Below, in pieces: positions 1,791 to 18,425 of a DNA stretch of 18,425 bases; position 1 is the first letter of the stretch, and each line of letters starts with the position of its first letter. The position numbers and the translations under genes are program-made. The DNA is from a virus: the UHGV virus genome UHGV-2152132; one strand, written 5' to 3'. Below the pieces are notes generated by a model. It did no database searches. It worked only from the letters and a program-made list of their open reading frames with translations, and was not told where the DNA came from.

Positions 1791-3336
1791 ATAGTTCCCT
1801 CACTTTCATGCGAGTAATAATTTGTAGAAGTTTATCAAGATTATCAAATCTATAGAGATCTAATCGAATGTTGTTTGTTTCCGTCATGCACATTTTATTA
1901 TATTCGTTTTCAATCTTTGGTATGATATAAAAATCAAGAGGTGAAATATTTTGTGAATTCATTCGTATAACAATTGTTATGTCTGCTTTCTGTGAGTTAT
2001 CAAACCGGACTTTCCATCTAAGTTTACCTGATTTCATATGTATGCATTTAGTAACAAGGACGGAAATTAAAAACTCATCATTGATGTAAAGCATTGGGGC
2101 ATATTTATACTCGTCTATATGACAGTTGCTTTTTAAAATTTCACCCTTAAAATCCTCAATTATCTCTGAGTAAAATGATCTTAGTGCTTCATTTATTTTG
2201 AGATAGCTGTAATCATGTTCTGGCTTATAACCAATCAAAGTATATGCTCTTAAAAGACCACCAAATCGGGTTCTATAAACAGAAGATGAAGGGCCTGTAT
2301 CATCTTCATCAATGATAAAGCCTGATAGTTTTCCATTAGATTCTAATTTTTGTTTTAGTTTTTCTAATAGATCTTCATTAGTCAAATGAATGGATCGGAG
2401 CTGAATTATTTCTTGAGCTTTATTGTATTTTTTCTTTGAAATAATAGGTTTATATGCCTTGTCACATCTAACCCATTCATGTTTGGGGTTTTTTACAAGC
2501 CTACTTTTTAATTTAGATGAGGTTTTGTTATATATGTTGTTTCCAATATATTTTTCATTTGTCAAAATTTGATGTATTTTTGCACGAGTCCATAATGTAC
2601 CATTTTCTGCAGGTATGTTCTGTTCATTTAATCTCTCAGCAATAATGAATTCTGGGACGTTATTATCTATAAAGAGATCATATATTCTATTTACAATTTT
2701 TATTTCATTTTTTGGTCCCGGAATTAATATTACCCTATCTGTTTGAATACTCTTTCTTTTGCGGAAACTCAATATTTCTTTAGCTATGCCATTTTCGTCT
2801 ACTAAAAGACGTCTCAGCCCATAACCAGCCATACCGCCTTGATGATAACCAAGCTTTATTAAATTTACTTGCCCTATAAATACCTTTTCAGATAGATTCC
2901 TGCTGTGATATGCAGCACTAGATCTTTTTATATTCAGTATAACAGAGGACTCTAAAGGGAAATCTTTAGTGGGTATAGGTTCGGAACAATATATAAGATC
3001 TACACCATTTCTCTCAAATAGAAAGGAATAATATGCCGCTTCATCACTATTTTGAAAACGACCAAAACGGCTCACATCATAAAATAATACAGCCTGTATA
3101 TCTATTTTCTTTTGTTCTACATCGCTAAGTAACTGCTGCAAAGAATGCCTGCCTACGATACTGACTCCGCTCTTACCTGAATCATCGTAGGTATAAGCGA
3201 TTTCCATATTGTTCTTTTCAGCATAATCTTTGATATATTCGGACTGATTATGTAAAGAATATTGCTGATGGTCGGTAGACATCCTCAAGTACTGCGCGAC
3301 CCTAACTCTATGATTTTTGTCATTTTCGCTAGCCAT
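1780..3336 (-). CDS. Large serine recombinase family protein (resolvase-type catalytic domain plus recombinase domain, long C-terminal extension)
   Basis: 518-aa ORF. N-terminal catalytic signature RVAQYLRMSTDHQ (Ser nucleophile context) and DDSGKSG; recombinase-domain-like GQVNLIKLGYHQGGMAGYGLRR. First gene of the operon, GAGG RBS upstream. AT-rich codon usage. Confidence 0.75.
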   Translation of the reverse strand: MASENDKNHRVRVAQYLRMSTDHQQYSLHNQSEYIKDYAEKNNMEIAYTYDDSGKSGVSIVGRHSLQQLLSDVEQKKIDIQAVLFYDVSRFGRFQNSDEAAYYSFLFERNGVDLIYCSEPIPTKDFPLESSVILNIKRSSAAYHSRNLSEKVFIGQVNLIKLGYHQGGMAGYGLRRLLVDENGIAKEILSFRKRKSIQTDRVILIPGPKNEIKIVNRIYDLFIDNNVPEFIIAERLNEQNIPAENGTLWTRAKIHQILTNEKYIGNNIYNKTSSKLKSRLVKNPKHEWVRCDKAYKPIISKKKYNKAQEIIQLRSIHLTNEDLLEKLKQKLESNGKLSGFIIDEDDTGPSSSVYRTRFGGLLRAYTLIGYKPEHDYSYLKINEALRSFYSEIIEDFKGEILKSNCHIDEYKYAPMLYINDEFLISVLVTKCIHMKSGKLRWKVRFDNSQKADITIVIRMNSQNISPLDFYIIPKIENEYNKMCMTETNNIRLDLYRFDNLDKLLQIITRMKVRELYAA

Positions 3337-3618
3337 GCACGAAACCTCATGGATGATTCAATACAATGTAGTGGATAAAATTGATCAAATTTTAACCGAA
3401 TTCAACTGTTTTATCATTGATTAGAGCGAATTTGGTAGATCTTCGAGGTGTATGATAATCGAGAAGAGATGTGAATTATTTAGCTGATATGACCGACAGC
3501 TTTCGTTATGTGGACTCAATGTCCCCATTTGTAAATGGCTATGCTTAGTCCACATAGGTTAATGGTGTGATTATTAATTCTTTAACTAAATCAAGATAGT
3601 TAATCCATCATGGGAGAG
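3337..3618 (-). promoter_or_regulatory. AT-rich leader/promoter region of the recombinase-ParB-ParB operon, containing a nested palindrome
   Basis: 282-bp non-coding gap between the integrase stop and the recombinase start. Perfect 9-bp inverted repeat ATGTGGACT (3508-3516) / AGTCCACAT (3547-3555) enclosing CCATTT-GT-AAATGG (3524-3537). No promoter hexamers confidently assigned. Confidence 0.35.
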
Positions 3619-4848
3619 TTATGCGGCAATAACTTTGCATTTTTGAGACGAAACATAGTCACTCCACCATTGCATGAGAACCACCCGTTCAGTGAGATAC
3701 TCTGCACGATTGTAGGCTGCAATTATTTCATCTTTCTTCGAGTGGGCAAGGGCGGCTTCTAAGACATCAGTCCTAAACTTGCCAGACTCCTCAGCAGCCG
3801 TTCTAGCAATGGATCGCATACCGTGAGCTACAAGCTCACCTCCGAAACCCATACGGATTATGGCCGCATTAGCTGTTTGTTCATGCATGTGATTGAGTGG
3901 AGCTTTGATACTGGGGAACACCCACTCTCTATGCCCGCTGATGACTTTCATTAAATCCAAAACTCGCAAAGCTTCTTTGCTCAGTGGAACTTTGTGAGGC
4001 TTCTTCATTTTCATAAACTCCGCCGGGATGTTCCACATGCCAGTTTCAATATCAATATCTGACCATCTTGTGCGAACAGCTTCACCTGGGCGAACCCATG
4101 TGAGAAGTTGCCACTCAATCAGTAGCCTTGTTTCCAAACGGATAGAAGCATTGTTTAGAGCAACCAAGAAGCGAGGGAGTTCGGAAGGGGGTAATGCTGG
4201 CATATTCTGTTTTTTTGGCTTGCTGAACCGTTGCCCCAGGTTGTCTGCCGGGTTGAATTCTATGAGTTCTTCTGTTGCTGCATAGCGGAAAATTTCATTC
4301 AGGCGGGATATGATGCGGCGAAGTGTTTCAAGGACACCTCGTTTTTCTATGGGTTCTAAATGCTGTTTAAGCATTTTAGGGCGAATCTCCTTAATTGGGG
4401 TATCACCCAATGTGGAAAAGATATTTCTCTCTAGGCTTCGCCAGATGTCGTTAGCATGATCTTGGGAGATGCCTGACGTTTTGACTTTCTCATCAAGCCA
4501 CTTCTTGGCTACTGCTTGAAATGTATGTTCCGTGGCATCTTTCAGTGCATTGGCTTTTTGGTTGTTATGAACTTGGGGGTCTATACCATTTGTAAGCAAC
4601 GACAAGTATTCATCACGTAAAGCTCGTGCCTTCGCAAGTGTAAGGTGAGGATAGGTTCCTAAGCTCACCTTAGTTCGCTTTTTGGTCACAGGCACTGCAT
4701 ATCTGAAATACCAATTTTTCTTCCCTCCCTTCGCCAGGGGAGCGATTCGCAACAGCAAACCATCGCCGTCAAAAAGGTTAACCTCTTTTTCGGCAGGTTT
4801 GGTGCTTTTGATTTCAGTGTCAGTGAGCTTCTTAGCGATTTTGGCCAT
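3619..4848 (-). CDS. P4-type (IntA/SlpA-like) tyrosine integrase
   Basis: ORF track gives 3619..4929 (436 aa). The probable true start is the internal Met of MAKIAKKLTDTEIKSTKP (about 4848), the typical P4-family integrase N-terminus. C-terminal catalytic residues: AHGMRSIARTAAE (H-x-x-R) and IIAAYNRAEY (Tyr nucleophile). Lies next to the ssrA 3'-end repeat, same orientation as ssrA. Confidence 0.85.
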   Translation of the reverse strand: MAKIAKKLTDTEIKSTKPAEKEVNLFDGDGLLLRIAPLAKGGKKNWYFRYAVPVTKKRTKVSLGTYPHLTLAKARALRDEYLSLLTNGIDPQVHNNQKANALKDATEHTFQAVAKKWLDEKVKTSGISQDHANDIWRSLERNIFSTLGDTPIKEIRPKMLKQHLEPIEKRGVLETLRRIISRLNEIFRYAATEELIEFNPADNLGQRFSKPKKQNMPALPPSELPRFLVALNNASIRLETRLLIEWQLLTWVRPGEAVRTRWSDIDIETGMWNIPAEFMKMKKPHKVPLSKEALRVLDLMKVISGHREWVFPSIKAPLNHMHEQTANAAIIRMGFGGELVAHGMRSIARTAAEESGKFRTDVLEAALAHSKKDEIIAAYNRAEYLTERVVLMQWWSDYVSSQKCKVIAA

Positions 4849-4944
4849 GTTTGGGACCCTCGATTTTAGGACCCATCTTCGTGGGTCCCATTCAGGGTGC
4901 CATAACTCGTAGTTCTCAGCAATTCTCACTAGACTACAATAGAC

Positions 4945-4986
4945 GTAAAAAAGCCCGCAGAGCTTGTGCTGTGCGGGCTTAGTAGA
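4945..4986 (-). terminator. Rho-independent terminator (minus strand) just downstream of the partial ssrA 3' copy
   Basis: 9-bp stem AAGCCCGCA (4951-4959) / TGCGGGCTT (4972-4980), 12-nt loop. On the minus strand the hairpin is followed by a T-run (complement of AAAAAA at 4945-4950). Confidence 0.55.
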
Positions 4987-5010
4987 CTTTACTGAACTTC
5001 AGTACATCAA

Positions 5011-5059
5011 TATTTGGTGGAGCTGGCGGGAGTTGAACCCGCGTCCGAAATTCCTACAT
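5011..5059 (-). repeat. att core: 49-bp exact direct repeat of the ssrA 3' end (partial tmRNA copy)
   Basis: tatttggtggagctggcgggagttgaacccgcgtccgaaattcctacat is identical at 5011-5059 and 17362-17410. It contains the 3'-terminal 45 nt of tmRNA; flanking bases differ. Confidence 0.9.
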
Positions 5060-5144: not shown

Positions 5145-6404
5145 TTAACTCTCCGCCGCCAAATTGCCGCCATCAGGTAGATGCTCATGCTTCATCATTT
5201 GGTGGATAAGAACTTCTACTTTTCTGAAGGTCGTATTGTCATAGTACTCAACAAGTGATTCATCGAAATCCTCTATCCAACCTTTTGCTGGGCCATTTGT
5301 TTGATATCTGACGGCAGTTGGTGAGTGGAAGTTGGGAGTAGCCTTTAAAGTGCTAAACACAGCCCATGATACTGGGTTAGTCACTTTAAATATTCTCTTC
5401 AATTCAGGGCAGTACAACGTGTTTGGTACAGTTATTCGTTCCATTTTAGGGGGTAAGATTACATTAATACCGATGTCACTATCTTTTTGATTAAGTATTT
5501 TTGTCGAACGATACGATATTCCAGAAATATCCTTGTTGCTATCACTGCTAATCCATTGCATTAATAGGTTTGGAATAATGTATTCTTTGTGAAAATTTGC
5601 ATGTTCATGATCTTTTGTATAGTTACAGGCCAATACTAAAGGCCATGCGATTAGTTTTGAAACCTTATCATTAATCGGGTCTGAGAAATCACTATAATTT
5701 TCATTGTTGTATTCATCTATGCGTTCAGGCTCAAATGAAAATGAATGCTCACTTGGAGTGGAACGTAGTGCTGACGTTAGGTTGTATCCGAGGTCTAGTA
5801 TTCTAATTTGTGATGATTCGTCTTCAGTAATAAATGATGATATATACAGCTTATCGAAATCTGGTTTTCCCATCTCTTGCCAGCAAACAAATATTGATGT
5901 CCCAAGATATAGACATGGTAAACCTGAAACTGAGAAGCGTTGTGCGCTTACCAAATGTCTTTGACTAAAAGGAATGTGGAATAATTCTTCTCTATTTTTT
6001 AGTATGTTTTCACTTTTCCTAACCCGAAATAACGGAGTTCGTCTATTACAAAGTTTTGTTAACGGAACCGTCATTTGATAAATGTGGTTCTTCATTGCTG
6101 GTGAACCTATTATAGCTTGGTTGAAAGTATTATAGGCTTCTTTAATATTACCGTTAAGATAATGGGTTAACGTTTCAGATATTTTATTGGAGAATGTTGT
6201 GATTGAAATCGATCTTTTTTTTACCTCTTTTATTGTTTCGTTGTCTGGATAGTCCTTTCTTATTTTATCAATAGCTTCAAGATAACAATCAATCCTGTTT
6301 TTAAAGTTGGATACAATGTCGCCATTGGCCTTGAATGGGGGTTGAAGTAGTTCATATTGTAATAATGAATCTGATATTTCTTTCAGTTCTGAATATTTGC
6401 GCAT
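5145..6404 (-). CDS. RES-domain-like protein (putative NAD+-targeting toxin/abortive-infection-type effector); prophage cargo between att and int
   Basis: 419-aa ORF, AT-rich relative to neighbouring phage genes. Central segment LFRVRKSENILKNREELFHIPFSQRHLVSAQRFSVSGLPCLYLGTSIFVCWQEMGKP resembles the RES-domain core (R ... G.P.LY..S....E). Starts 10 nt after the integrase stop, weak RBS, so probably co-transcribed with int. Domain call by pattern only. Confidence 0.45.
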   Translation of the reverse strand: MRKYSELKEISDSLLQYELLQPPFKANGDIVSNFKNRIDCYLEAIDKIRKDYPDNETIKEVKKRSISITTFSNKISETLTHYLNGNIKEAYNTFNQAIIGSPAMKNHIYQMTVPLTKLCNRRTPLFRVRKSENILKNREELFHIPFSQRHLVSAQRFSVSGLPCLYLGTSIFVCWQEMGKPDFDKLYISSFITEDESSQIRILDLGYNLTSALRSTPSEHSFSFEPERIDEYNNENYSDFSDPINDKVSKLIAWPLVLACNYTKDHEHANFHKEYIIPNLLMQWISSDSNKDISGISYRSTKILNQKDSDIGINVILPPKMERITVPNTLYCPELKRIFKVTNPVSWAVFSTLKATPNFHSPTAVRYQTNGPAKGWIEDFDESLVEYYDNTTFRKVEVLIHQMMKHEHLPDGGNLAAES

Positions 6405-6414
6405 GAGAATTATT

Positions 6415-7431
6415 TCAATTAAGGTTGATTAATGGATTCTTAGTCACAGCATCTTCGAGATGTTCTGGAGAAAAATGTGCATATATCATTGTCATTTTAA
6501 TATCAGTGTGACCCAAGATTTCTTTAAGTACCAGTATGTTTCCGCCGTTCATCATAAAGTGACTGGCGAATGTATGACGCAGAACGTGGGTACATTGACC
6601 TTCCGGCAGCTCAATACCGGCCCTCTTTACTGCTCGTTCAAAAGCTTTTCTGCATGGAGTGAATAATTTTCCTCTCTTTTTGGGGAGTTCGTCATACAGA
6701 TCCTGTGATATTGGCACTGTTCTGTTTTTCTTGCCCTTAGTCTTGGTGTAAGTGATGCGGTATTTTGACAACTGGTGTCCCTGTAGGTTTTCGGCTTCAC
6801 TCCATCGCGCGCCGGTGGCCAGGCAGATTTTTGTAATCAAAAGCAGGCTGGGGCTTTGAGAATCAGCGCAGGCATCCAGCAGACGTTTAATTTCTTCCGG
6901 GGTCAGGAACGCCAGTTCACCCTCAGCAATTTTAAATGTTGGCAGCCCGGCAAGTGGGTTGGGGGCTGACCAATGGCCCAGCTTTTTCAGTGTACCAAAT
7001 ACCGATGATAGGTTACGCTGTTCAAGGTTTACCGTGCGGGGCTTAACGGGCGACATAAGCGTGCCATCTTCATTTCGCACTTCACCTTTTAGCCGTGCTT
7101 CGCGGTATTTCGTAAAGTCACCGGCTGTCAGTTCTGAGGCGATGGGATCGCCTAGACCATTACAGATAATTTTAAGTTTCGCCATGAGGCGCTTGGGGTC
7201 TGCGAGTGTCTGACCGTACAGGGAATACCAAAGCTCAATTAATTCTGATAGGCGTCGCCGATCATCCTTTTCTCCTAACCACGGTTTTTTGTTCACTTCT
7301 TCCATTGTGAAGCTTTCAAACGCAATAGCTTCGCCTTTGGTAGCAAATTGCTTACGCACGCGCTTGCCATTGCGTCCATTGGGATAGCACTCACACAACC
7401 ATTTTCCGTTCGGCTGTTTTCTGATGGTCAT
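6415..7431 (-). CDS. int: P2/186-family tyrosine integrase
   Basis: 338-aa ORF with catalytic motifs ATGARWSEA (Arg), HVLRHTFASH (His-x-x-Arg) and MIYAHF (Tyr). Position next to the CI-type repressor is typical of P2-like phages. Confidence 0.88.
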   Translation of the reverse strand: MTIRKQPNGKWLCECYPNGRNGKRVRKQFATKGEAIAFESFTMEEVNKKPWLGEKDDRRRLSELIELWYSLYGQTLADPKRLMAKLKIICNGLGDPIASELTAGDFTKYREARLKGEVRNEDGTLMSPVKPRTVNLEQRNLSSVFGTLKKLGHWSAPNPLAGLPTFKIAEGELAFLTPEEIKRLLDACADSQSPSLLLITKICLATGARWSEAENLQGHQLSKYRITYTKTKGKKNRTVPISQDLYDELPKKRGKLFTPCRKAFERAVKRAGIELPEGQCTHVLRHTFASHFMMNGGNILVLKEILGHTDIKMTMIYAHFSPEHLEDAVTKNPLINLN

Positions 7432-7432
7432 T

Positions 7433-8065
7433 TCAAAGGCTCTTAATGATTTTCAGTGCGCGGCCTACTACCTCAATGTCATCCAGGCCGCACTCAAACG
7501 ATGAATCATCCTGATGCACTACTAATTTGTTTCCCGGGAGTCGAGTCAATTTAACGATGCTTTTTATCCCGTCGATATCGACTAACCACATACCATTTAC
7601 TGGTGGTGTTTGGTTGCGATCTATTAAATAAGAATCACCAGAAGTAGTCACCAGCAGTAGGTTGCTTGAGTCTGAGGGGAGTATGCTGCTATCAATGATT
7701 GCTTTTCCAGCATCGACCAATAAACCACCGTTGAGAGTCGCCTTGTCAATTTCAGGAGATACTAGTTCAGAAAGAGGTACAACCTTGCTGGAGTTCACGG
7801 AATTGATATTTTTTTTAGGTTCAATGTTTGGACCTGGCTCCCCCTGTCCGGTGGTTAGCCACAGTAAAGAAACTCCTGTTTCCAAGGCGCACTGAATCAC
7901 CCACTCTGCAGGAAAACTATCTCTTAAGTATCTGTTTGCCATGGTGCTTTTTGATGCGCCTAAGTGATCGCAAAGTTGCTGTCTGGACTTGAAATCATAG
8001 GCTGCCATTAGTCTATGGATAGCCTCTCTTCCCCCTGTATTCTCTCCAACCTTTACCTGTATCAT
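7433..8065 (-). CDS. 186-type CI immunity repressor
   Basis: 210-aa ORF. N-terminal HTH region SRQQLCDHLGASKSTMANRYLRD and the segment QCALETGVSLLWLTTGQGEP, characteristic of phage 186/PSP3/Fels-2 CI. Divergent from the apl/cII-like genes across an operator-bearing gap. Confidence 0.75.
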   Translation of the reverse strand: MIQVKVGENTGGREAIHRLMAAYDFKSRQQLCDHLGASKSTMANRYLRDSFPAEWVIQCALETGVSLLWLTTGQGEPGPNIEPKKNINSVNSSKVVPLSELVSPEIDKATLNGGLLVDAGKAIIDSSILPSDSSNLLLVTTSGDSYLIDRNQTPPVNGMWLVDIDGIKSIVKLTRLPGNKLVVHQDDSSFECGLDDIEVVGRALKIIKSL

Positions 8066-8459: not shown

Positions 8460-8855
8460 ATGTTTGATTATAAGATTTCCAAACACCCGCATTTTGATGA
8501 AGCCTGTAGAGCTTTTGCACTTCGTCACAATATGGCGAAGCTGGCAGAACGTGCAGGAATGAATGTCCAGACTCTGCGAAACAAACTCAACCCAGATCAA
8601 CCGCATCAGCTCAATGCGCCAGATATCTGGCTACTTACCGATCTGACGGAAGATTCAACGCTGGTAGACGGTTTTCTGGCACAGATTCACTGCCTGCCAT
8701 GTGTACCGATTAATGAGGTGGCAAAAGAGAAACTGCCACATTACGTCATGAGTGCAACCGCAGAGATCGGGCGTGTTGCTGCAGGTGCGGTATCCGTTCC
8801 GACGTTCCTCGTTGCCGCTTCTCCCAAACCAACGTTTAAGAAAATGCAGAGGTAA
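8460..8855 (+). CDS. CII-like phage regulatory protein (186 CII family), possibly C-terminally altered
   Basis: 131-aa ORF. N-terminal MFDYKISKHPHFDEACRAFALRHNMAKLAERAGMNVQTLRNKLNPDQ resembles 186-type CII. AAGGGGG RBS. Gene ends 38 bp before the invertase, where the normal early-region genes are missing. Confidence 0.55.
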   Translation: MFDYKISKHPHFDEACRAFALRHNMAKLAERAGMNVQTLRNKLNPDQPHQLNAPDIWLLTDLTEDSTLVDGFLAQIHCLPCVPINEVAKEKLPHYVMSATAEIGRVAAGAVSVPTFLVAASPKPTFKKMQR

Positions 8856-8899
8856 CAGCTAACTGGCATCATCTCCGGTTTTTATTCAGGGGGATGATC

Positions 8900-9466
8900 A
8901 TGCTTATTGGCTATGTACGCGTGTCAACAAATGACCAGAACACCGATTTGCAACGTAATGCACTGAACTGCGCGGGATGTGAGCAGATTTTTGAGGACAA
9001 AATCAGTGGCACTAAGTCCGACAGACCGGGGCTGAAAAAACTACTCAGGACACTATCGGCAGGAGACACGCTGGTTGTCTGGAAGCTGGACAGGTTGGGG
9101 CGCAGTATGCGGCATCTTGTTACGCTGATAGAAGAGTTGCGCCAGCGTGGTGTGAATTTCAGAAGCCTGACTGACAGTATTGATACCAGTACCCCAATGG
9201 GCCGTTTCTTTTTTCATGTCATGGGTGCCCTGGCTGAAATGGAACGCGAACTGATAGTTGAACGTACCAGGGCAGGGCTGGCTGCAGCTCGTGCCAAAGG
9301 CAGAGTAGGTGGACGCCGTCCTAAGTTGACCACCGAACAGTGGGCACAGATTGGGCGTTTACTCGAGGCCGGAGAATCAAGACAGCGTATTGCACTGATT
9401 TTTGATGTAGGCGTTTCTACCATTTATAGAAAATTTCCGGCAAATAAGATCAATGAATCCCCCTGA
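8900..9466 (+). CDS. Site-specific DNA invertase, Gin/Pin/Cin/Hin family (small serine recombinase)
   Basis: Starts MLIGYVRVSTNDQNTDLQRNAL...GDTLVVWKLDRLGRSM...SPMGRFFFHVMGALAEMERELI, the canonical invertase sequence, with C-terminal HTH. ORF track starts at 8894 (MIM...); ATG 8900 has better spacing from AGGGGG (8888-8893). Confidence 0.92.
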   Translation: MLIGYVRVSTNDQNTDLQRNALNCAGCEQIFEDKISGTKSDRPGLKKLLRTLSAGDTLVVWKLDRLGRSMRHLVTLIEELRQRGVNFRSLTDSIDTSTPMGRFFFHVMGALAEMERELIVERTRAGLAAARAKGRVGGRRPKLTTEQWAQIGRLLEAGESRQRIALIFDVGVSTIYRKFPANKINESP

Positions 9467-9514
9467 ATCAGCATTATGTTGATTATCCCTGCAAGCAGAC
9501 AAATACCGTTATTT

Positions 9515-9532
9515 TGTGTGAATAACGACACA
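9515..9532 (+). promoter_or_regulatory. P2-type late promoter activator site (TGT-N12-ACA dyad) upstream of FI
   Basis: TGT (9515-9517), 12 nt, ACA (9530-9532), inside a near-perfect dyad TTGTGTG...GACACAA, about 85 bp upstream of the FI start. P2-family late promoters carry this Ogr-dependent element near -55. Confidence 0.5.
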
Positions 9533-9608
9533 ACTGCGCTTAGCTGTTTGTCAGGCACAATCACTTCAACATAGGGCGAAGCCTAATCCAATCAGGAGGT
9601 TCGCCACT

Positions 9609-10781
9609 ATGGCTCAGGATTACCACCACGGGGTGCGCGTTGTTGAAGTCAACGAAGGCACCCGATCTATTACCACGGTGAGCACCGCCATCGTGGGTAT
9701 GGTCTGCACGGGCGATGATGCCGATGCAAAAATGTTTCCTCTTAATAAACCCGTGCTGATCACTGATGTGCTGACTGCCAGCGGTAAAGCGGGTGAGTCA
9801 GGTACTCTGGCCCGTTCGCTGGATGCCATCGCTGACCAGGCAAAACCCGTGACCATTGTTGTGCGTGTGCCGCAGGGTGAAACGGAAGACGAAACCACGA
9901 CCAATATCATCGGCGCAGTGACTGCTGAAGGTAAAAAAACAGGTATGAAAGCCCTGTTATCTGCCCAGTCACAGCTCGGCGTTAAACCGCGCATTCTCGG
10001 CGTGCCAGGCCACGACACCAAGGCGGTAGCTACTGAGTTGCTGAGCGTGGCGCAAAGCCTGCGTGGATTTGCTTACCTGTCAGCGTATGGCTGCAAGACA
10101 GTGCAGGAGGCGATCACTTACCGCGAAAACTTCAGCCAGCGCGAAGGGATGCTGATCTGGCCTGACTTTACTGGCTGGGACACGGTGCTGAATGCCGAAG
10201 CAACGGCATATGCCACCGCCCGTGCGCTTGGTCTGCGCGCCAAAATTGACGAGCAGACCGGATGGCACAAAAGCCTGTCCAACGTGGGCGTGAACGGTGT
10301 CACCGGAATTTCTGCAGATGTGTTCTGGGATCTGCAGGACCCGGCAACCGATGCAGGTCTGCTGAACCAGAACGACGTCACCACGCTTGTGCGTAAAGAC
10401 GGTTTCCGCTTCTGGGGTTCCCGCTGCCTGAGTGATGACCCGCTCTTTGCCTTCGAAAACTACACCCGCACGGCGCAGGTGCTGATGGACACGATGGCAG
10501 AAGCACACATGTGGGCGGTGGATAAACCGCTTAACCCGTCGCTGGCCCGCGACATTATCGAAGGTATCCGCGCCAAAATGCGCAGCCTGGTCAGTCAGGG
10601 CTATCTCATTGGTGGTGATTGCTGGCTGGATGAGTCGGTGAACGACAAAGACACGCTGAAAGCCGGAAAACTCACCATCGACTACGACTACACGCCAGTG
10701 CCGCCACTTGAAAACCTGATGCTGCGTCAGCGCATCACCGATCAGTACCTGGTGAATTTCGCCAGCCAGGTCAGCGCGTAA
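9609..10781 (+). CDS. FI: Contractile tail sheath protein (P2 gpFI homolog)
   Basis: 390-aa ORF starting [40 protein letters not shown], typical gpFI N-terminus. CAGGAGG RBS. Followed by FII-E-T-U-D in P2 order. Confidence 0.9.
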
Positions 10782-10790
10782 GGGGACAAC

Positions 10791-11306
10791 ATGGCTTTAC
10801 CACGCAAATTAAAACACCTGAACCTGTTTAACGACGGGAACAACTGGCAGGGGATCGTTGAATCGCTGACGCTGCCGAAATTTACCCGCAAATATGAGAA
10901 GTATCGCGGCGGCGGAATGCCGGGTGCGGTGGATGTGGATCTGGGGCTTGATGACAGTGCGCTGGACACAGAATTTTCCATTGGTGGTACTGAATTGCTG
11001 CTGTTTAAACAGATGGGTAAAGCCACGGTGGATGGCATCCAGCTGCGCTTTACCGGCTCTATTCAGCGTGACGATACCGGGGAAGTGCAGGCCGTGGAGC
11101 TTGTCGTGCGTGGACGTCACAAAGAAGTGGATTCCGGCGAGTGGAAGACGGGCGAAAGCAACACCACCAAAGTGACCAGTACCAACAGCTACGCGAAGCT
11201 GACCATCAATGGTGAGGTGCTCTATGAAGTGGACCTTATCAACATGGTGGAAATTGTGGACGGTGTGGACCTGATGGAAGCGCACCGCAACGCCCTCGGC
11301 CTCTGA
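10791..11306 (+). CDS. FII: Tail tube protein (P2 gpFII homolog)
   Basis: 171-aa ORF, MALPRKLKHLNLFNDGNNWQG...RFTGSIQRDDTGE, immediately after FI. Confidence 0.9.
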   Translation: MALPRKLKHLNLFNDGNNWQGIVESLTLPKFTRKYEKYRGGGMPGAVDVDLGLDDSALDTEFSIGGTELLLFKQMGKATVDGIQLRFTGSIQRDDTGEVQAVELVVRGRHKEVDSGEWKTGESNTTKVTSTNSYAKLTINGEVLYEVDLINMVEIVDGVDLMEAHRNALGL

Positions 11307-11360
11307 TATATCTGAACGGCGCGGGATACCGCGCCAGAACCCAATTGACAGGACAGCAAA

Positions 11361-11663
11361 ATGAGCGATAAGCAGACTGAAAAGACCATTCAACTGGATA
11401 CCCCCATCAAGCGCGGTAAAACAGAAATCACCGAAATTGTGCTGCGTAAACCGCAGTCCGGTGCGCTGCGCGGTACACGCCTGCAGGCCATTATGGATAT
11501 GGATGTAAACGCGATGATGACCGTGATCCCCCGCATCTCCAGTCCGGCACTGACTGCACAGGAAATTGCAGAGATGGACCCGGCAGATCTCACTGCCATG
11601 TCGGTTGAGGTTGTCACTTTTTTGTTGAAGAAGTCGGTGCTTGCCGGTTTACCGACAGCCTGA
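11361..11663 (+). CDS. E: Tail assembly chaperone gpE (unshifted product)
   Basis: 100-aa ORF between FII and T. Contains the slippery heptamer T TTT TTG near its 3' end. Confidence 0.8.
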   Translation: MSDKQTEKTIQLDTPIKRGKTEITEIVLRKPQSGALRGTRLQAIMDMDVNAMMTVIPRISSPALTAQEIAEMDPADLTAMSVEVVTFLLKKSVLAGLPTA

Positions 11664-11797
11664 CGGTTGACGATCTGGTGGCAGATATCGCCACCATTTT
11701 TCACTGGCCGCCATCCGTTACTGACGTTATGCCGCTGACCGAAGTGCTGGAATGGCGGTATAAAGCGATTCAGAGAAGCGGGGCCAACGATGAGTGA
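11361..11797 (+). CDS. Tail assembly chaperone E+E' (predicted -1 programmed frameshift product)
   Basis: Slippery site TTTTTTG at about 11618-11624. The -1 frame is open from there to TGA at 11795-11797, giving an extension ...DDLVADIATIFHWPPSVTDVMPLTEVLEWRYKAIQRSGANDE that overlaps the T start by 8 nt. Confidence 0.6.
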
Positions 11798-14700
11798 TAA
11801 CAACCTGCGTCTGCAGGTCATTCTTAATGCGGTTGACAAGCTCACCCGCCCATTTCGATCTGCGCAGGCCAGTTCAAGAGAACTGGCTGCTGCTGTCAAA
11901 AAATCCCGCGATGCAATAAAGCAGCTTGATCAGGCCGGGAGCAGTCTGGACAGCTTCCGAAAGCTGCAGGCAGAAAATCAGAAATTAGGCGACAGGCTGA
12001 ACTATGCCCGCCAGCGTGCAAATTTGCTCAGTCAGGAACTGGGAGCGATGGGGCCGCCTTCGCAACGTCAGGTTGTTGCTCTGGGCCGTCAACGGCTGGC
12101 TGTTCAGCGCCTGGAAGAACGCCAGAAAAAGCTGCAGCAGCAGACGGCGCTTGTGCGTGCTGAACTGTACCGGGCGGGAATTTCTGCGAAAGACGATGCG
12201 GGAGCAACTGCCCGTTTAGCCCGTGAAACATCACGTTATAACCAGGAACTTTCGAAACAGGAGGCGCGGCTGAAGCGACTGGGGGAAGCTCAGCGCAGGA
12301 TGAATGCAGCGCGTGCCAGTTATGCCCGTTCGCTGGAGGTGCGTGATCGTATTGCAGGTGCCGGAGCCACCACCACGGCTGCAGGGCTGGCAATGGGTGC
12401 GCCAGTGATGGCGGCAGTAAAAAGCTATACCAGCATGGAAGATGCCATGAAAGGTGTGGCAAAGCAGGTCAATGGTCTGCGTGACGATAATGGCAACCGC
12501 ACTGCACGTTTTTATGAAATGCAGGATGCCATCAAGGCTGCCAGCGAACAGTTGCCGATGGAAAACGGTGCGGTGGACTTCGCTGCACTGGTTGAAGGTG
12601 GTGCGCGCATGAACGTCGCAAACCCTGACGACAGCTGGGAAGATCAGAAACGTGACCTGCTGGCCTTCGCCAGTACGGCAGCAAAGGCGGCAACAGCCTT
12701 TGAGCTGCCAGCGGATGAACTGTCAGAAAGTCTGGGGAAAATCGCCCAGCTCTACAAAATCCCCACCCGCAATATTGAACAGCTCGGTGATGCGCTGAAC
12801 TATCTGGATGATAACGCCATGTCGAAAGGGGCAGACATCATTGATGTGATGCAACGTCTGGGCGGTGTGGCTGACCGTCTGGATTATCGTAAAGCGGCGG
12901 CGCTGGGTTCCACCTTCCTGACACTGGGCGCTGCGCCAGAGGTTGCAGCCAGTGCAGCAAACGCGATGGTGCGTGAATTGTCCATTGCCACCATGCAAAG
13001 CAAGAGTTTCTTTGAAGGGATGAATCTGCTGAAACTCAATCCTGAAGTGATTGAAAAGCAGATGACGAAGGATGCGATGGGAACCATCCAGCGCGTGCTG
13101 GAGAAGGTAAACGCGCTGCCGCAGGACAAGCGCCTGTCTGCCATGACTATGTTGTTTGGTAAAGAGTTTGGCGATGACGCGGCGAAACTGGCAAACAACC
13201 TGCCGGAACTGCAGCGTCAGTTAAAACTGACAGCGGGCAATGATGCGCTTGGCTCCATGCAAAAAGAATCCGACATTAACAAGGATTCACTTTCTGCGCA
13301 GTGGTTGCTGGTCAAAACCGGAGCGCAGAACACCTTCAGCAGCCTGGGCGAAACGCTGCGCCAGCCGCTGATGGATATTCTGTACACGGTGAAAAGCGTC
13401 ACGGGGGCGTTGCGTCGCTGGGTGGAAGCTAACCCGGAACTGACAGGCACACTGATGAAAGCATCGGCTGTTGTGGCTGCGGTTACCGTCGGCCTCGGCA
13501 CCTTAGCGGTGGCGCTGGCTGCAGTGCTGGGGCCGCTGGCAGTGATCCGTCTGGGATTCTCTGTGTTGGGTATCAAAACGTTATCTTCCGTTACGGCAGC
13601 AGTAACTCGAACCAGCAGCGCGTTGTCCTGGCTGGCTGGCGCACCACTGGCACTGCTGCGACGCGGGCTTGCTTCATCGGGCAACGCCGCAGGTTTACTT
13701 ACTGCGCCGTTGTCGTCTTTGCGCCGCACGGCATCACTGACGGGAAATGTCCTGAAAACTGTAGCAGGTGCGCCGGTTGCACTTTTGCGGTCTGGATTAT
13801 CCGGTTTACGTGCTGTTGCTGTGATGTTTATGAATCCTCTGGCGGTACTGCGCGGTGGACTGGCCGCCGCAGGCACGGTGCTGCGAGTACTGGCATCTGG
13901 TCCACTGGCGATGCTGCGCGTTGCCCTGTATGCCATATCTGGTCTGTTAGGTGCTCTGCTCAGTCCGATAGGTCTTGTGGTTACTGCACTGGCGGGCGTG
14001 GCGCTGGTTGTCTGGAAATACTGGCAACCCATCACCGCATTTCTCGGTGGCGTGGTGGAAGGATTCAAAGCGGCGGCAGGTCCCATCAGTGCAGCGTTCG
14101 AACCGCTTAAGCCCGTGTTCCAGTGGATTGGCGACAAAGTGCAGGCGCTGTGGGGCTGGTTTACTGATCTGCTGACGCCCGTTAAGTCGACCTCTGCCGA
14201 ACTGCAGAGCGCAGCGGCAATGGGGCGGCGATTCGGGGAGGCACTGGCGGAAGGGCTGAATATGGTCATGCATCCGCTGGACTCCCTGAAATCCGGCGTT
14301 TCCTGGTTGCTGGAGAAGCTCGGCATTGTCAGTAAAGAGGCCGCAAAGGCAAAACTGCCGGAAAGCGTGACGCGTCAGCAACCTGCGACGGTGAATGCAG
14401 ACGGTAAAGTGATGATGCCATCGGGTGGTTTTCCATCATGGGGATATGGCTTTGCGGGGATGTATGACAGCGGCGGGTATATCCCGCGCGGGCAGTTTGG
14501 CATCGTCGGTGAAAACGGGCCGGAAATTGTTAACGGCCCGGCAAATGTGACCAGCCGGAGAAATACAGCTGCACTGGCTGCCGTTGTTGCCGGAATGATG
14601 GGCGTTGCTGCCGCGCCAGCAGAGCTTCCACCGTTGCACCCCTTGGCACTTCCCGCGAAAGGTGGAGAAGCAATTGTGAGTCGCGCAGCCACTGTGCCAC

Positions 14701-14867
14701 TCGTTCAACGGATTGAGGCACCGACGCAGATCATCATTCAGACGCAGCCAGGACAAAGTGCGCAGGATATTGCGCGGGAGGTGGCACGCCAGCTTGATGA
14801 ACGTGAACGCAGGCTGAAGGCAAAAGCCAGGAGTAACTACAGCGATCAGGGGGGATACGACGCATGA
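11790..14867 (+). CDS. T: Tail tape measure protein (P2 gpT homolog)
   Basis: 1025-aa ORF in the expected position. N-terminal coiled-coil-like region, central Ala/Gly/Leu-rich hydrophobic region with tandem PLAxLRxGL-type repeats, C-terminal Gly-rich region. Confidence 0.9.
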   Translation: MSDNNLRLQVILNAVDKLTRPFRSAQASSRELAAAVKKSRDAIKQLDQAGSSLDSFRKLQAENQKLGDRLNYARQRANLLSQELGAMGPPSQRQVVALGRQRLAVQRLEERQKKLQQQTALVRAELYRAGISAKDDAGATARLARETSRYNQELSKQEARLKRLGEAQRRMNAARASYARSLEVRDRIAGAGATTTAAGLAMGAPVMAAVKSYTSMEDAMKGVAKQVNGLRDDNGNRTARFYEMQDAIKAASEQLPMENGAVDFAALVEGGARMNVANPDDSWEDQKRDLLAFASTAAKAATAFELPADELSESLGKIAQLYKIPTRNIEQLGDALNYLDDNAMSKGADIIDVMQRLGGVADRLDYRKAAALGSTFLTLGAAPEVAASAANAMVRELSIATMQSKSFFEGMNLLKLNPEVIEKQMTKDAMGTIQRVLEKVNALPQDKRLSAMTMLFGKEFGDDAAKLANNLPELQRQLKLTAGNDALGSMQKESDINKDSLSAQWLLVKTGAQNTFSSLGETLRQPLMDILYTVKSVTGALRRWVEANPELTGTLMKASAVVAAVTVGLGTLAVALAAVLGPLAVIRLGFSVLGIKTLSSVTAAVTRTSSALSWLAGAPLALLRRGLASSGNAAGLLTAPLSSLRRTASLTGNVLKTVAGAPVALLRSGLSGLRAVAVMFMNPLAVLRGGLAAAGTVLRVLASGPLAMLRVALYAISGLLGALLSPIGLVVTALAGVALVVWKYWQPITAFLGGVVEGFKAAAGPISAAFEPLKPVFQWIGDKVQALWGWFTDLLTPVKSTSAELQSAAAMGRRFGEALAEGLNMVMHPLDSLKSGVSWLLEKLGIVSKEAAKAKLPESVTRQQPATVNADGKVMMPSGGFPSWGYGFAGMYDSGGYIPRGQFGIVGENGPEIVNGPANVTSRRNTAALAAVVAGMMGVAAAPAELPPLHPLALPAKGGEAIVSRAATVPLVQRIEAPTQIIIQTQPGQSAQDIAREVARQLDERERRLKAKARSNYSDQGGYDA

Positions 14868-15349
14868 TGATGGTGCTGGGATTGTACGTGTTTATGCTGC
14901 GCACCGTTCCGTATCAGGAACTGCAGTATCAACGCAGCTGGCGACATGCGGCAAACAGTCGGGTAAACCGACGTCCGTCCACGCAGTTTCTGGGACCGGA
15001 AAACGACATGCTGACGCTTTCCGGTGTTCTTATGCCGGAAATAACAGGCGGCAGGCTGTCGTTGCTGGCACTGGAGCAGATGGCAGAACAGGGGAAAGCA
15101 TGGCCCCTGATTGAAGGCAGCGGCACGATTTACGGCATGTATGTGATTGAGGGACTGAATCAGACTAAAACGGAGTTTTTCCGCGACGGTATGCCGCGCC
15201 GGATTGAGTTCACCCTGTCGCTCAAACGAGTGGATGAATCCCTGTCCGATATGTTCGGTGATCTCAGTGCGCAACTGAATAATCTGCAGGACACGGCAAC
15301 GTCTGCCTTAAGCGATATCAGTAAAACGGTGGGAGGGCTGCTGTCGTGA
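14864..15349 (+). CDS. U: Tail protein gpU homolog
   Basis: 161-aa ORF, MMMVLGLYVFMLRTVPYQELQYQRSWRH..., ATGA-type overlap with the T stop. Confidence 0.88.
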   Translation: MMMVLGLYVFMLRTVPYQELQYQRSWRHAANSRVNRRPSTQFLGPENDMLTLSGVLMPEITGGRLSLLALEQMAEQGKAWPLIEGSGTIYGMYVIEGLNQTKTEFFRDGMPRRIEFTLSLKRVDESLSDMFGDLSAQLNNLQDTATSALSDISKTVGGLLS

Positions 15350-16446
15350 ATTTCAGCTCTGAACTGCTTAACAAAGGCAACAAAACTCCCGCATTCAGCA
15401 TCAGTATTGAGGGCAGGGATATCACCACTGTGCTGGATAACCGCCTGATGAGTTTGACGCTGACGGATAACCGGGGCTTTGAAGCGGACCAGCTTGATCT
15501 GGAGCTGGATGACGCTGACGGAAAAATCGTGCTGCCGCGCCGTGGTGCGGTTATTACGCTGGCGCTGGGCTGGAAGGGGCAGCCGCTTTTCCCGAAAGGG
15601 GCATTCACAGTGGACGAGATTGAACACACTGGCGCACCGGACCGCCTGACTATCCGGGCGCGAAGTGCTGATTTTCGGGAAACGCTGAATACCCGCCGTG
15701 AAAAATCGTGGCATAAGACCACCGTCGGGGAAGTGGTGAAGGAAATAGCCGCGCGGCACAAGCTGAAGATGGCCCTGGGTAAAGACCTGTCGGATAAGCC
15801 CGTGGAGCATATAGACCAGACTAATGAGAGTGACGGCAGTTTTCTGATGCGGCTGGCGCGACAGTACGGTGCCATCGCGTCGGTGAAAAATGGCAATCTG
15901 TTATTCATCCGGCAGGGGCAGGGCAAAAGCGCCACTGGTAAACCTCTGCCAGTGATCACTATCACACGCAAGGACGGCGACAGTCACCGATTTACCCTGG
16001 CAGATCGCGGAGCCTACACGGGCGTAATTGCCAGCTGGTTGCATACCCGCGAACCTGCGAAGAAAGAAAGCACCACGGTGAAGCGTAAGCGCAGAACTAA
16101 GAAGCAGAAGAAAGAGCCGGAAGCGAAGCAGGGCGATTACCTGGTGGGTACGGATGAAAACGTGCTGGTACTTAATCGCACTTATGCCAACCGGAGCAAC
16201 GCTGAACGGGCAGCGAAAATGCAGTGGGAACGCCTGCAACGCGGCGTTGCGTCATTCTCGCTACAACTGGCGGAAGGGCGGGCAGATCTTTACACGGAAA
16301 TGCCAGTGAAAGTTAGTGGCTTTAAACAACCGATAGATGATGCGGAATGGACCATTACGACTCTGACTCATACCGTCAGCCCGGATAATGGTTTTACGAC
16401 CAGTATTGAACTCGAAGTGAAGATTGATGATCTTGAAATGGAATAA
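15346..16446 (+). CDS. D: Tail protein gpD homolog (late gene D)
   Basis: 366-aa ORF following U with a 4-nt overlap, matching P2 gene order. Confidence 0.88.
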   Translation: MNFSSELLNKGNKTPAFSISIEGRDITTVLDNRLMSLTLTDNRGFEADQLDLELDDADGKIVLPRRGAVITLALGWKGQPLFPKGAFTVDEIEHTGAPDRLTIRARSADFRETLNTRREKSWHKTTVGEVVKEIAARHKLKMALGKDLSDKPVEHIDQTNESDGSFLMRLARQYGAIASVKNGNLLFIRQGQGKSATGKPLPVITITRKDGDSHRFTLADRGAYTGVIASWLHTREPAKKESTTVKRKRRTKKQKKEPEAKQGDYLVGTDENVLVLNRTYANRSNAERAAKMQWERLQRGVASFSLQLAEGRADLYTEMPVKVSGFKQPIDDAEWTITTLTHTVSPDNGFTTSIELEVKIDDLEME

Positions 16447-16514: not shown

Positions 16515-16733
16515 ATGATGAATTGTCCAAAGTGTGGTCATGCGGCACACACAAGGAGCAGTTTTCAAGTAACTGAAAGCACCAAAGAGCGTTACTGCCA
16601 GTGCCAAAATATTAACTGCGGGAGCACTTTTGTTACCCATGAAACAGTGGTCCGGTTTATTGTGACACCCGCACTGATTGCTACTGCTCCTCCACATCCA
16701 TTGCCAGGTGGTCAGGGGCATATGAATTTTTGA
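16515..16733 (+). CDS. ogr: Ogr/Delta-family zinc-finger late transcription activator
   Basis: MNCPKCGHAAHTRSSFQVTESTKERYCQCQNINCGSTFVTHETVVRFIVTP, with the four-Cys C-x2-C ... C-x4-C arrangement of P2 Ogr. ORF track starts at 16470; the ATG at 16515 (MMNCPKC) fits Ogr length. Confidence 0.85.
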   Translation: MMNCPKCGHAAHTRSSFQVTESTKERYCQCQNINCGSTFVTHETVVRFIVTPALIATAPPHPLPGGQGHMNF

Positions 16734-16741
16734 GAAAGAGA

Positions 16742-16763
16742 ACCTGCTACGGCAGGTTTTTAT
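16742..16763 (+). terminator. Rho-independent terminator after ogr
   Basis: Stem ACCTGC (16742-16747) / GCAGGT (16752-16757), 4-nt loop, followed by TTTTTAT on the plus strand. Confidence 0.6.
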
Positions 16764-17242
16764 TCATCTGGGATCTCACCCGTTTCAAGAAAATGTATAA
16801 AGCCAGGCTCATCTATGATGATTGTGCCTTTCATCCTGGCTGCCGATACTTTTGATGGGCCTGCATTGTAACCGCAACAGAGCATCTGAAGGCTTTGGGT
16901 TACAGAGGTTCTTACCGTTAATCCTTGTTCATTCGCCTTATCAACCAATCTTTCTTTATCTGCTTTCTTAAATCCGGTGAAACACACATCGAATGTATTT
17001 TTTTTCGGACCAGACTGCTTAGTGAGATGTGAGTAGTTTTCGGGGAGGAATGACGCGCATTCCTGAATGGCTTGTTCTGGTGAATCGTACTGTTTAAGAA
17101 TGCGGTCTTTTCGGAAGGTTTTTATTCGATCGGTGTTCTTACAAATGCCCTGTATATGATTTTCGCTATAACTGATGCTCTGTATTGAGTGAACTCCGAT
17201 ACGACCATTTGCATTGATGTAAACAAAGTGAAGTTCTTCCAT
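16760..17242 (-). CDS. Small WYL-like / BRCT-like two-domain protein; prophage cargo between ogr and ssrA
   Basis: 160-aa ORF, AGAGG RBS 6 nt upstream. N-terminal HFVYINANGRIGVHSIQSISYSENHIQGICKNTDRIKTFRKDRI resembles a WYL domain. C-terminal FDVCFTGFKKADKERLVDKANEQGLTVRTSVTQSLQMLCCGYNAGPSKVSAARMKGTIIIDEPGFIHFLE resembles a BRCT domain. Pattern-based only. Confidence 0.45.
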   Translation of the reverse strand: MEELHFVYINANGRIGVHSIQSISYSENHIQGICKNTDRIKTFRKDRILKQYDSPEQAIQECASFLPENYSHLTKQSGPKKNTFDVCFTGFKKADKERLVDKANEQGLTVRTSVTQSLQMLCCGYNAGPSKVSAARMKGTIIIDEPGFIHFLETGEIPDE

Positions 17243-17320
17243 GTGAAACCTCTTTGCATGATTTCAAGAGGGCGACAGGCAAGATAGACGCAAAAGTCTG
17301 TCGCCATTTTGCCGCCACTA

Positions 17321-17360
17321 CCAAAGAAAAAGGGGCTACGCTTTCACGTAACCCCTTGTT
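17321..17360 (-). terminator. ssrA rho-independent terminator (prophage-supplied side of att)
   Basis: On the minus strand, just 3' of the tmRNA end: hairpin GGGGTTACG / CGTAGCCCC with 6-nt loop (plus-strand 17332-17355, one mismatch), followed by TTTTTCTTT. Confidence 0.65.
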
Positions 17361-17361
17361 T

Positions 17362-17410
17362 TATTTGGTGGAGCTGGCGGGAGTTGAACCCGCGTCCGAA
17401 ATTCCTACAT
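17362..17410 (-). repeat. att core at the intact ssrA 3' end (partner of 5011-5059)
   Basis: 49 bp identical to 5011-5059; covers the last 45 nt of ssrA plus 4 nt downstream. Confidence 0.9.
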
Positions 17411-17728
17411 CCTCGGTACTACATGCTTAGTCAGTCTTTATATTCGCTTGCCAGCTGCGGACGGACACGCCACTAACAAACTAGCCTGATTAAGTTTTAA
17501 CGCTTCAACCCCAGGCAGGGCTTCCACGCGATCTCTTTTGGGTTTGACCTCTCTTGATCCCCGTCCTAAGAGCGGAGGCTAGGGAGAGAGGGCTCTAAGC
17601 AGGTTATTAAGCTGCTAAAGCGTAGTTTTCGTCGTTTGCGACTATTTTTTGCGGCTTTTTACGAGGCCAACCGCCCCTCGGCATGCACCTTGGGTTTCGC
17701 AAATCCCGTCGAATCCAGAATCAGCCCC
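17366..17728 (-). ncRNA. ssrA: tmRNA (transfer-messenger RNA, SsrA)
   Basis: Reverse complement reads GGGGCTGATTCTGGATTCGACGGGATTTGCGAAACCC...GGTTCAACTCCCGCCAGCTCCACCA, 363 nt, matching enterobacterial tmRNA end to end, including the tRNA-like 3' end with CCA. Confidence 0.95.
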
Positions 17729-17942: not shown

Positions 17943-18425
17943 TTAACGGTGGGCGTTTTTCATGATACGTGCTTTATCCACCTGCCATTCGCGCTCTTTG
18001 ATATCTGAACGTTTATCGTGCTGTTTCTTACCTTTGGCGACGCCGATTTTCACTTTGCACCAGGCATTTTTCCAGTACAGGGAGAGCGCCACTACGGTAT
18101 AGCCTTCTCGATTGACGCGACCGTACAATGAGTCCAGTTCGCGCTGGTTGAGAAGTAACTTGCGGGTACGGGTAGGATCGCACACCACATGCGTGGAGGC
18201 CACGGCCATTGGCGTGATGTTAGCGCCAAACAGAAATGCCTCTCCGTCACGCAGAAGGACGTAGCTGTCGCTGATATTGGCTTTTCCTGCGCGCAGGGAT
18301 TTAACTTCCCAGCCTTGCAGGGCAAGTCCCGCTTCGAACTCTTCTTCGATAAAGTATTCGTGACGGGCGCGCTTGTTAAGCGCGATGGTCGCTGAACCAG
18401 GTTTATGTGCTTTTTTCTTCGTCAT
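17943..18425 (-). CDS. smpB: SsrA-binding protein SmpB
   Basis: 160-aa [67 protein letters not shown]..., recognised as enterobacterial SmpB; start codon at the window edge. Upstream of and co-oriented with ssrA. Confidence 0.95.

Follow-up and report, generated by a model that had tools for sequence, protein, structure and literature searches.

In canonical phage P2, no ORF lies between the late-gene activator ogr and attP; apart from a terminator and the core, this interval has nothing but one Int arm site and one IHF site. In the 18,425-nucleotide stretch of DNA analyzed here (the window), which carries a P2/186-like prophage, this interval is occupied by an ORF encoding 160 aa, hereafter ORF X or simply X, which raises the question of what a gene at the very edge of such a prophage might do. 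The original prediction had described an ORF with a good ribosome-binding site, opposite in orientation to the late genes and lying in an interval that P2 leaves empty, whose product would pair a WYL-like N-terminus with a BRCT-like C-terminus; the pairing was considered unusual, and a link was proposed with a RES-like gene across attP. The description of the gene and both domain calls agree with our results, while the rarity of the pairing and the RES-like link do not.

A conserved gene between ogr and ssrA

ORF X is the last phage gene before attR, and it lies in the following surroundings:

16760..17242, minus strand: ORF X, WYL-BRCT protein of 160 aa, ATG start, stop codon at 16760..16762
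17249..17255, minus strand: Shine-Dalgarno sequence AAAGAGG, 6 nt before the ATG of ORF X
16515..16733, plus strand: ogr, late-gene activator, convergent neighbour of ORF X
16741..16758, no strand assigned: hairpin between the convergent ogr and ORF X, terminator-like on the minus strand (end of X), bidirectional
17366..17728, minus strand: ssrA (tmRNA), oriented like ORF X, which it directly precedes in the lysogen
17943..18425, minus strand: smpB, at the right end of the window

When 5.8 billion proteins were searched at E<=1e-3, there were 122 homologues of 32-99% identity, the majority spanning the full length (153-190 aa); their sources are Escherichia, Klebsiella, Citrobacter, Yersinia, Pectobacterium, Serratia, Xenorhabdus and marine bacteria. 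In a 65-sequence alignment of the family, Y8, T42, T89, G90, F91, L99 and K131 are invariant, and approximately 25 further columns are at least 90% conserved. Therefore, these comparisons confirm at the sequence level that ORF X is a genuine conserved gene and not a chance reading frame. When an RNA gene overlapping the locus was sought in Rfam, tmRNA was the sole match.

As for the prophage itself, its tail genes FI to D are present (9609..16446, plus strand), and it is a deletion remnant. Its CII ORF (region 8460..9609) is truncated to 131 aa, covering Pfam positions 1-111 of 146, as compared to 169 aa in phage Cartapus, and is directly followed by a Hin-like invertase (8894..9466) and then by the tail sheath gene FI. 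The window lacks the replication, head, lysis, baseplate and fibre genes, which are found in E. coli 2011C-3911 and PEC1011. Moreover, a second integrative element (1..5010) lies in tandem at a duplicated ssrA 3' end (attL copy 5011..5059), with genes for a P4-type integrase (3619..4929, minus strand), a large serine recombinase (1780..3336, minus strand) and two ParB/RepB-like ORFs (1..1790, minus strand). The record NC_049342.1 (locus L001, 'Escherichia phage 500465-1'), listed in RefSeq as a complete phage genome, is an over-extended prophage prediction, as the host genes smpB, ratA, bamE, recN, nadK and grpE lie beyond attR.

A short WYL domain joined to a ligase-type BRCT domain

The protein divides into three parts, with the coordinates given on the window:

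17081..17242, minus strand: residues 1-54, five-stranded WYL/Sm-like beta-barrel, with conserved Y8, K41, T42, F43, R44, K45, D46 and R47 (...TFRKDRI motif)
16991..17080, minus strand: residues 55-84, two short helices and a variable, lower-confidence linker
16763..16990, minus strand: residues 85-160, single BRCT domain of the LigA/RFC1 type, with invariant T89, G90 and K131, and K96 always K or R

The assignment of the N-terminal half to WYL domains is transitive, as the matches come through homologues and longer relatives: ORF X itself has no match to Pfam WYL (PF13280) at E<=10, and this family is matched by 4 of 65 homologues (best E 1.5e-5) and by 24 of 60 longer relatives (best E 1.2e-8); the PADLOC WYL model is matched by 27 of these 60. 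Among PDB sequences, the N-terminal profile reaches only PafC and PafBC, and aligns a strand on the pattern ...C....R.FR.DRI that reads LFRFDRI in PafC and NFRLDRV in PafBC. In addition, the structural model of the domain resembles WYL domains more closely than other small barrels, and its top matches include the WYL domains of DriD and CapW, both solved with ssDNA bound. Residues T42, F43, R44, D46 and R47 are invariant or nearly so in the family, and a conserved basic patch formed by K41, R44, K45 and R47 is predicted to bind anions; the eponymous W-Y-L triplet, for its part, reads H-I-Q. On these lines of evidence the call of a WYL-like N-terminus stands.

ORF X nonetheless falls outside the family of HTH-WYL regulators, as it has no N-terminal winged HTH and the barrel begins at residue 3. 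BrxR, CapW, DriD and PafBC are HTH-WYL(-WCX) transcription factors of approximately 290-660 aa, whereas X lacks both the HTH and the WCX dimerisation domain, reduces the WYL domain to approximately 55 residues and carries a BRCT domain as its output module. To our knowledge, every characterised WYL domain is wired to an HTH or to an enzyme, while the one in X is joined only to a ligase-type BRCT domain.

The BRCT-like C-terminus was likewise upheld. The two motifs by which the BRCT call had been illustrated, FTGF... and ARMKGTIIIDE, are both found in the translation, and the C-terminal half has the predicted β-α-β-β-α-β-α fold, a four-stranded parallel sheet between helices. Against Pfam BRCT (PF00533) the protein scores 19.5 bits (E 1e-3), just under the cut-off of 21.3, and the family is matched by 44 of the 65 close homologues and by 49 of the 60 longer relatives. 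The best PDB sequence matches of the family profile, at E of approximately 1e-4, are the BRCT domains of Thermus LigA and of human and yeast RFC1, with T89-G90, K96 and K131 aligned to the TG, R/K and SK positions of these proteins. The phosphate-pocket signature (Ser/Thr-Gly after beta1, Lys in alpha2) thus appears, judging from the 65 aligned sequences, to be conserved in X, and a second conserved patch predicted to bind anions is formed on this side by K92, K93, K96, R111 and K131. The Thr-Gly, Lys/Arg and Lys residues of RFC1 are reportedly the ones by which a recessed DNA end is held at its 5'-phosphate, an observation attributed to Kobayashi et al. in 2006 and 2010. The isolated RFC1 BRCT domain binds recessed 5'-phosphate DNA at approximately 10 nM (PMC9293004), the LigA BRCT domain contributes to nick joining, and certain BRCT domains have poly(ADP-ribose) or NAD+ as their ligand (PMC10386641). 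Since X is net neutral, with a mildly acidic BRCT half (pI 5.3), its charge would suit a small anionic group (phosphate, nucleotide, ADP-ribose or phosphopeptide) as well as DNA. A Foldseek comparison with viral models returned ligase BRCT domains and small unnamed proteins, and nothing more. Overall, X has the pocket residues in common with the LigA and RFC1 BRCT domains, but differs from them in being mildly acidic and in having no ligase or clamp-loader module attached.

Database names tell a different story, and could in principle be correct. ORF X is a full-length member of PHROG 2561, 'DNA ligase' (E 2e-77, positions 2-167 of 167), the family bears the same name in RefSeq phage records, and in Cartapus the gene is annotated as a 'putative exonuclease'. 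However, the LigA and DEDDh exonuclease models of NCBIfam match only the C-terminal BRCT domain, at approximately 11-26 bits against cut-offs of 369-1051, with the LigA matches, at 11-20 bits, confined to the last 70-100 residues, and the adenylation (nucleotidyltransferase) and OB domains of LigA and an exonuclease domain are all absent from X. More broadly, searches of Pfam, NCBIfam and PADLOC found no HTH, WCX, ligase, nuclease or other enzyme domain in it. This domain content, together with a length of 160 aa that leaves no room for a catalytic domain, led us to reject a ligase or exonuclease, a reading that we regard as practically out of the question; to judge by the sequence matches, both names are carried over from BRCT similarity.

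Family distribution and genomic position

The WYL-BRCT pairing turned out to be less exceptional than originally predicted. It makes up a whole PHROG family (2561), and a profile search of a representative library of 1.84 billion proteins matched 202 clusters (50% identity) at E<=1e-30, a number that rises to 875 when the threshold is relaxed to E<=1e-10. Among 5426 complete E. coli genomes, 171 carry the gene, always in the order ogr, X, ssrA. P2 does not have it, and neither do most of the P2-like prophages of E. coli. The architecture was already known, as a WYL+BRCT fusion appears among the WYL architectures listed by Makarova et al. in 2014 (PMC4012209). This listing was all that our literature search on WYL-BRCT proteins, prophage or P2-like BRCT proteins and PDC-S48 returned, with no report of a function or of phage protection; what appears undescribed is the placement beside the repressor in P2-like prophages, the minimal, effector-less form and any function. 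Named GenBank phages matching X are all P2-like temperate Peduoviridae, together with one integrase-bearing Pseudomonas phage. No virulent phage matched at E<=1e-5 among 50,697 records, and X is essentially absent from plasmids; the gene is restricted to temperate phages.

Longer relatives of approximately 400-500 aa carry the WYL-BRCT module at their C-terminus. PADLOC candidate PDC-S48 (PDLC05027) is matched by 49 of 60 of them (best E 1e-44); these relatives match across the full model, whereas X lacks the N-terminal part of approximately 250 aa and matches only positions 335-406 of 411, the BRCT end (E 1.8e-7). No paper mentioning this candidate was found. The additions consist of N-terminal transmembrane segments, a second WYL domain, a whole second module or an uncharacterised domain, and a search for an effector domain among the longer relatives recognised none. 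In the membrane-anchored variants (P0185, P0199, P0209 and others), one to three predicted transmembrane segments and a low-complexity linker precede the module, and such variants fill the repressor-adjacent slot of Pasteurellaceae P2-like prophages (L128:4536-5492, L132:4719-5519). The uncharacterised domain, of 150-300 aa, has the motifs W.F.V...ALDI, WTQG, F.EGDVFY and LQ.G; it is C-terminal in P0133, P0154, P0169, P0181 and P0184 and N-terminal in P0124, P0129 and L104, corresponds to a phrog_36782-type architecture, and matched no Pfam family or PDB sequence.

We then turned to the position of the gene relative to the lysogeny module, for which the following features of the window are needed:

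7433..8065, minus strand: 186-type CI repressor, first gene of the lysogenic operon
6415..7431, minus strand: P2-type integrase (int)
5145..6404, minus strand: variable cargo gene of 419 aa ('RES-like'), between int and attL, adjoining X across attP in the circular phage
5011..5059, no strand assigned: attL, a copy of the 49-bp att identity block that bounds the P2/186-like element on the left
17362..17410, no strand assigned: attR copy of the 49-bp block, at the 3' end of ssrA
17298..17317, minus strand: direct repeat TGGCGGCA-AAA-TGGCGACAG, written whole TGGCGGCAAAATGGCGACAG
17330..17357, minus strand: strong terminator-like hairpin just after ssrA, phage-borne

In the circular phage, the CI operon points through int, the cargo gene and attP towards ORF X. 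The complete genome of Cartapus has CI, int, a 'RES-like' cargo gene, attP and X on one strand, followed by the convergent ogr; in Yersinia phage MLG42 the cargo gene is missing and the order is otherwise identical. In these two genomes X thus comes last in the direction of lysogenic transcription, and integration parts it from the CI operon. In more distant P2-like phages the association is tighter, with X on the strand of the repressor in each case: X begins 4 nt after CI in Mannheimia PHL101, is directly behind the repressor and co-oriented with it in Burkholderia phages, and occurs as CI-X-orf-int in Vibrio PV94, as CI-X-int in a Xenorhabdus prophage and as C-orf-X-int in a Serratia prophage.

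The neighbourhood was surveyed at 49 loci from species-representative genomes, taking two ORFs upstream and two downstream with their Pfam summaries. A co-oriented repressor stands immediately upstream of X at 12 loci and one ORF further away at 4 more, the ssrA-X-ogr-D layout occurs at 6, and 27 are not assignable to a prophage context. Upstream, the dominant families are HTH_3 (11), Peptidase_S24 (9), Phage_CI_repr (7) and SmpB (4); downstream, gpD (8), integrase (7) and Ogr (4) predominate, and KAP NTPase, AbiTii and Mrr turn up sporadically. A marine homologue lies in a P4-integrase island beside Mrr and a DNA methylase. The presence of X with three repressor classes (186-type CI, S24 autocleavable and short HTH_3) points to an autonomous function.

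We also considered the proposal that X is linked with the RES-like gene across attP, in which case it could be the sensor or adaptor of a two-gene system, for instance by binding NAD-derived or ADP-ribose ligands. The two genes do adjoin in the circular genome, the ability of some BRCT domains to bind poly(ADP-ribose) or NAD+ (PMC10386641) is in line with such a role, and the conserved pockets of X would suit small anionic ligands. However, the 419-aa cargo gene is found in 1 of the 5426 E. coli genomes as compared to 171 for X, and MLG42 carries X alone. The RES match of the cargo gene is itself marginal (E 0.049), and the gene has no Pfam family at E<=0.001 and no PADLOC match. The corresponding slot holds a 401-aa gene annotated as 'RES protein' in Cartapus and no gene in MLG42, so that the int-attP interval looks like a variable cargo slot. 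Moreover, neither the Pfam summaries nor per-locus seed searches revealed a conserved upstream or downstream partner across the 49 species loci, and in several prophages X is the sole gene between the repressor and int or gpD. The RES-like gene was consequently rejected as a partner on co-occurrence, and we consider a two-gene system very improbable.

How X is transcribed depends on the layout. Where it adjoins the repressor, operonic expression with it is a simple inference. In the E. coli layout, the terminator at 17330..17357 separates X from every upstream promoter, and a consensus scan of the 88 bp from this terminator to the ATG found no sigma-70 consensus, so that lysogen expression is putative there; read-through from ssrA or from the CI operon, or a non-consensus promoter, are possible routes. 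An alignment of the upstream region shows conserved Int-arm-like repeats followed by a variable stretch of approximately 55 bp before the ATG, and nothing else. The direct repeat at 17298..17317 is kept in relatives with three different att cores, and its conservation even where the core differs makes it probable that the repeat represents two arm-type Int sites of attP, in a position that would be analogous to the P2 P arm. Homology to Fels-2, SopEPhi, RE2010 and Klebsiella P2-like phages starts at approximately 17292-17298 and runs into ssrA. The terminator itself stands outside the 49-bp block and is also present in Cartapus attP, between int/cargo and X; in the lysogen, it is thus the phage that supplies the terminator ending ssrA. 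At the other boundary, the attL copy is followed by another terminator-like hairpin near 4953..4980.

Possible functions of the WYL-BRCT protein

Of the functions considered, the one we favour, tentatively and with less than even confidence, is that X is a non-catalytic accessory binder of ssDNA and 5'-phosphate DNA structures, expressed in the lysogen, that interferes with incoming or replicating foreign phage DNA. X would then be a moron-type accessory gene in the lysogeny module of temperate P2/186-like phages, and its protein would be made in the lysogen. The minimal WYL domain would bind ssDNA, as the WYL domains of CapW, DriD and PafBC do, while the BRCT domain, being of the LigA/RFC1 class, would hold a phosphate in its Thr-Gly...Lys pocket. 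Together they would recognise ssDNA/dsDNA junctions, nicks or cohesive ends with a 5'-phosphate, as displayed by foreign phage DNA on entry or in replication, and their occupancy would block end joining, ligation or replication, resulting in superinfection exclusion or defence, from which its excision as a circle would protect the resident prophage.

We infer lysogen expression, the DNA ligand and the exclusion outcome from the alignment of the conserved T89, G90, K96 and K131 to LigA and RFC1, from the basic patch K41/R44/K45/R47 and from the repressor-adjacent position, to which the restriction to temperate phages, the variable cargo of neighbouring slots, including KAP NTPase, AbiTii and Mrr, and the match of longer relatives to PDC-S48 can be added. 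The membrane-anchored Pasteurellaceae variants fit as well, favouring an action near the site of phage DNA entry. On the other side, X has no effector domain, so that any defence would have to act by occupancy alone, and PDC-S48 is itself only a candidate, which X matches over the BRCT domain alone. The neutral protein with its mildly acidic BRCT domain, the terminator and missing sigma-70 consensus upstream, and the 27 of 49 loci that are not placed also speak against exclusion. A more specific form of this reading, in which X is a non-catalytic, single-protein exclusion factor that caps 5'-phosphorylated cohesive ends or single-strand/double-strand junctions (the WYL domain contacting the single strand and the BRCT domain the 5'-phosphate) and thereby prevents host LigA from circularising incoming phage DNA, with self-immunity through the excised circle and expression by read-through from the highly transcribed ssrA in E. 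coli lysogens, seems to us decidedly unlikely.

The main rival makes X a DNA-damage sensor of the lysis-lysogeny switch, its WYL domain sensing ssDNA and its BRCT domain contacting the repressor, Int or a host factor, thereby promoting or restraining induction or excision. The tight placement beside the repressor, often between CI and int, is in its favour, as are the ssDNA-bound DriD and CapW domains among the top structural matches, and BRCT domains are classic protein-interaction modules in damage signalling. Yet X accompanies three repressor classes that are unrelated to one another, and one of them, the S24 autocleavable repressors, can do without an additional sensor. A full-length E. 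coli prophage with the CI-int-cargo module of the window has a gene for a DinI-like (Tum-type) protein, the means by which SOS canonically triggers induction of 186-like phages. Its absence from P2 and most E. coli P2-like prophages marks X as accessory and not core to the switch, and membrane-anchored variants suit a cytoplasmic repressor partner poorly; a damage sensor is thus possible but unlikely. A modulator of host fitness or DNA repair, binding nicks or gaps and competing with or recruiting LigA or other repair factors so as to alter the damage tolerance of the lysogen, would draw on the fact that the closest BRCT relatives by sequence are those of NAD-dependent ligases, and that the LigA BRCT domain takes part in nick joining (PMC10386641). 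We consider it rather improbable, since a gene confined to temperate phages and lying in a variable cargo slot is more likely to be a conflict gene. It is precisely BrxR/CapW-type regulators that the N-terminal domain resembles, and X could accordingly be an anti-defence decoy, a free WYL domain soaking up the ssDNA signal that derepresses BREX through BrxR or CBASS through CapW, to the benefit of the phage. Such a decoy is highly improbable, however, for a gene that lies in a lysogenic and not an early lytic transcription unit and has no virulent-phage match at E<=1e-5 among the 50,697 records, and it would leave the conserved BRCT pocket unexplained.

Sensing by WYL domains is well established in bacterial immunity and in responses to DNA damage. 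The family of X extends over hundreds of clusters in Proteobacteria and beyond, and the gene would belong to the operon that a prophage keeps on. Knowing its function would account for a common gene that P2-like prophages carry in E. coli, Klebsiella, Yersinia, Vibrio, Burkholderia and Pasteurellaceae, and that is now misannotated there as 'DNA ligase', 'exonuclease' or 'hypothetical'. The role of a stand-alone BRCT domain in bacteria would become clear as well, and a non-enzymatic way of excluding phages, or an additional input into prophage induction, might come to light.

The exclusion reading favoured here has its closest precedents in genes that are expressed in the lysogen and located beside the repressor, such as rexAB of lambda, glo of Vibrio phage K139 and bstA of Salmonella phage BTP1. 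X shows no kinship with these in sequence or fold, and an exclusion role is for X a putative one; nevertheless, all three are accessory genes co-transcribed with or adjoining the immunity repressor, and in this position X is like them.
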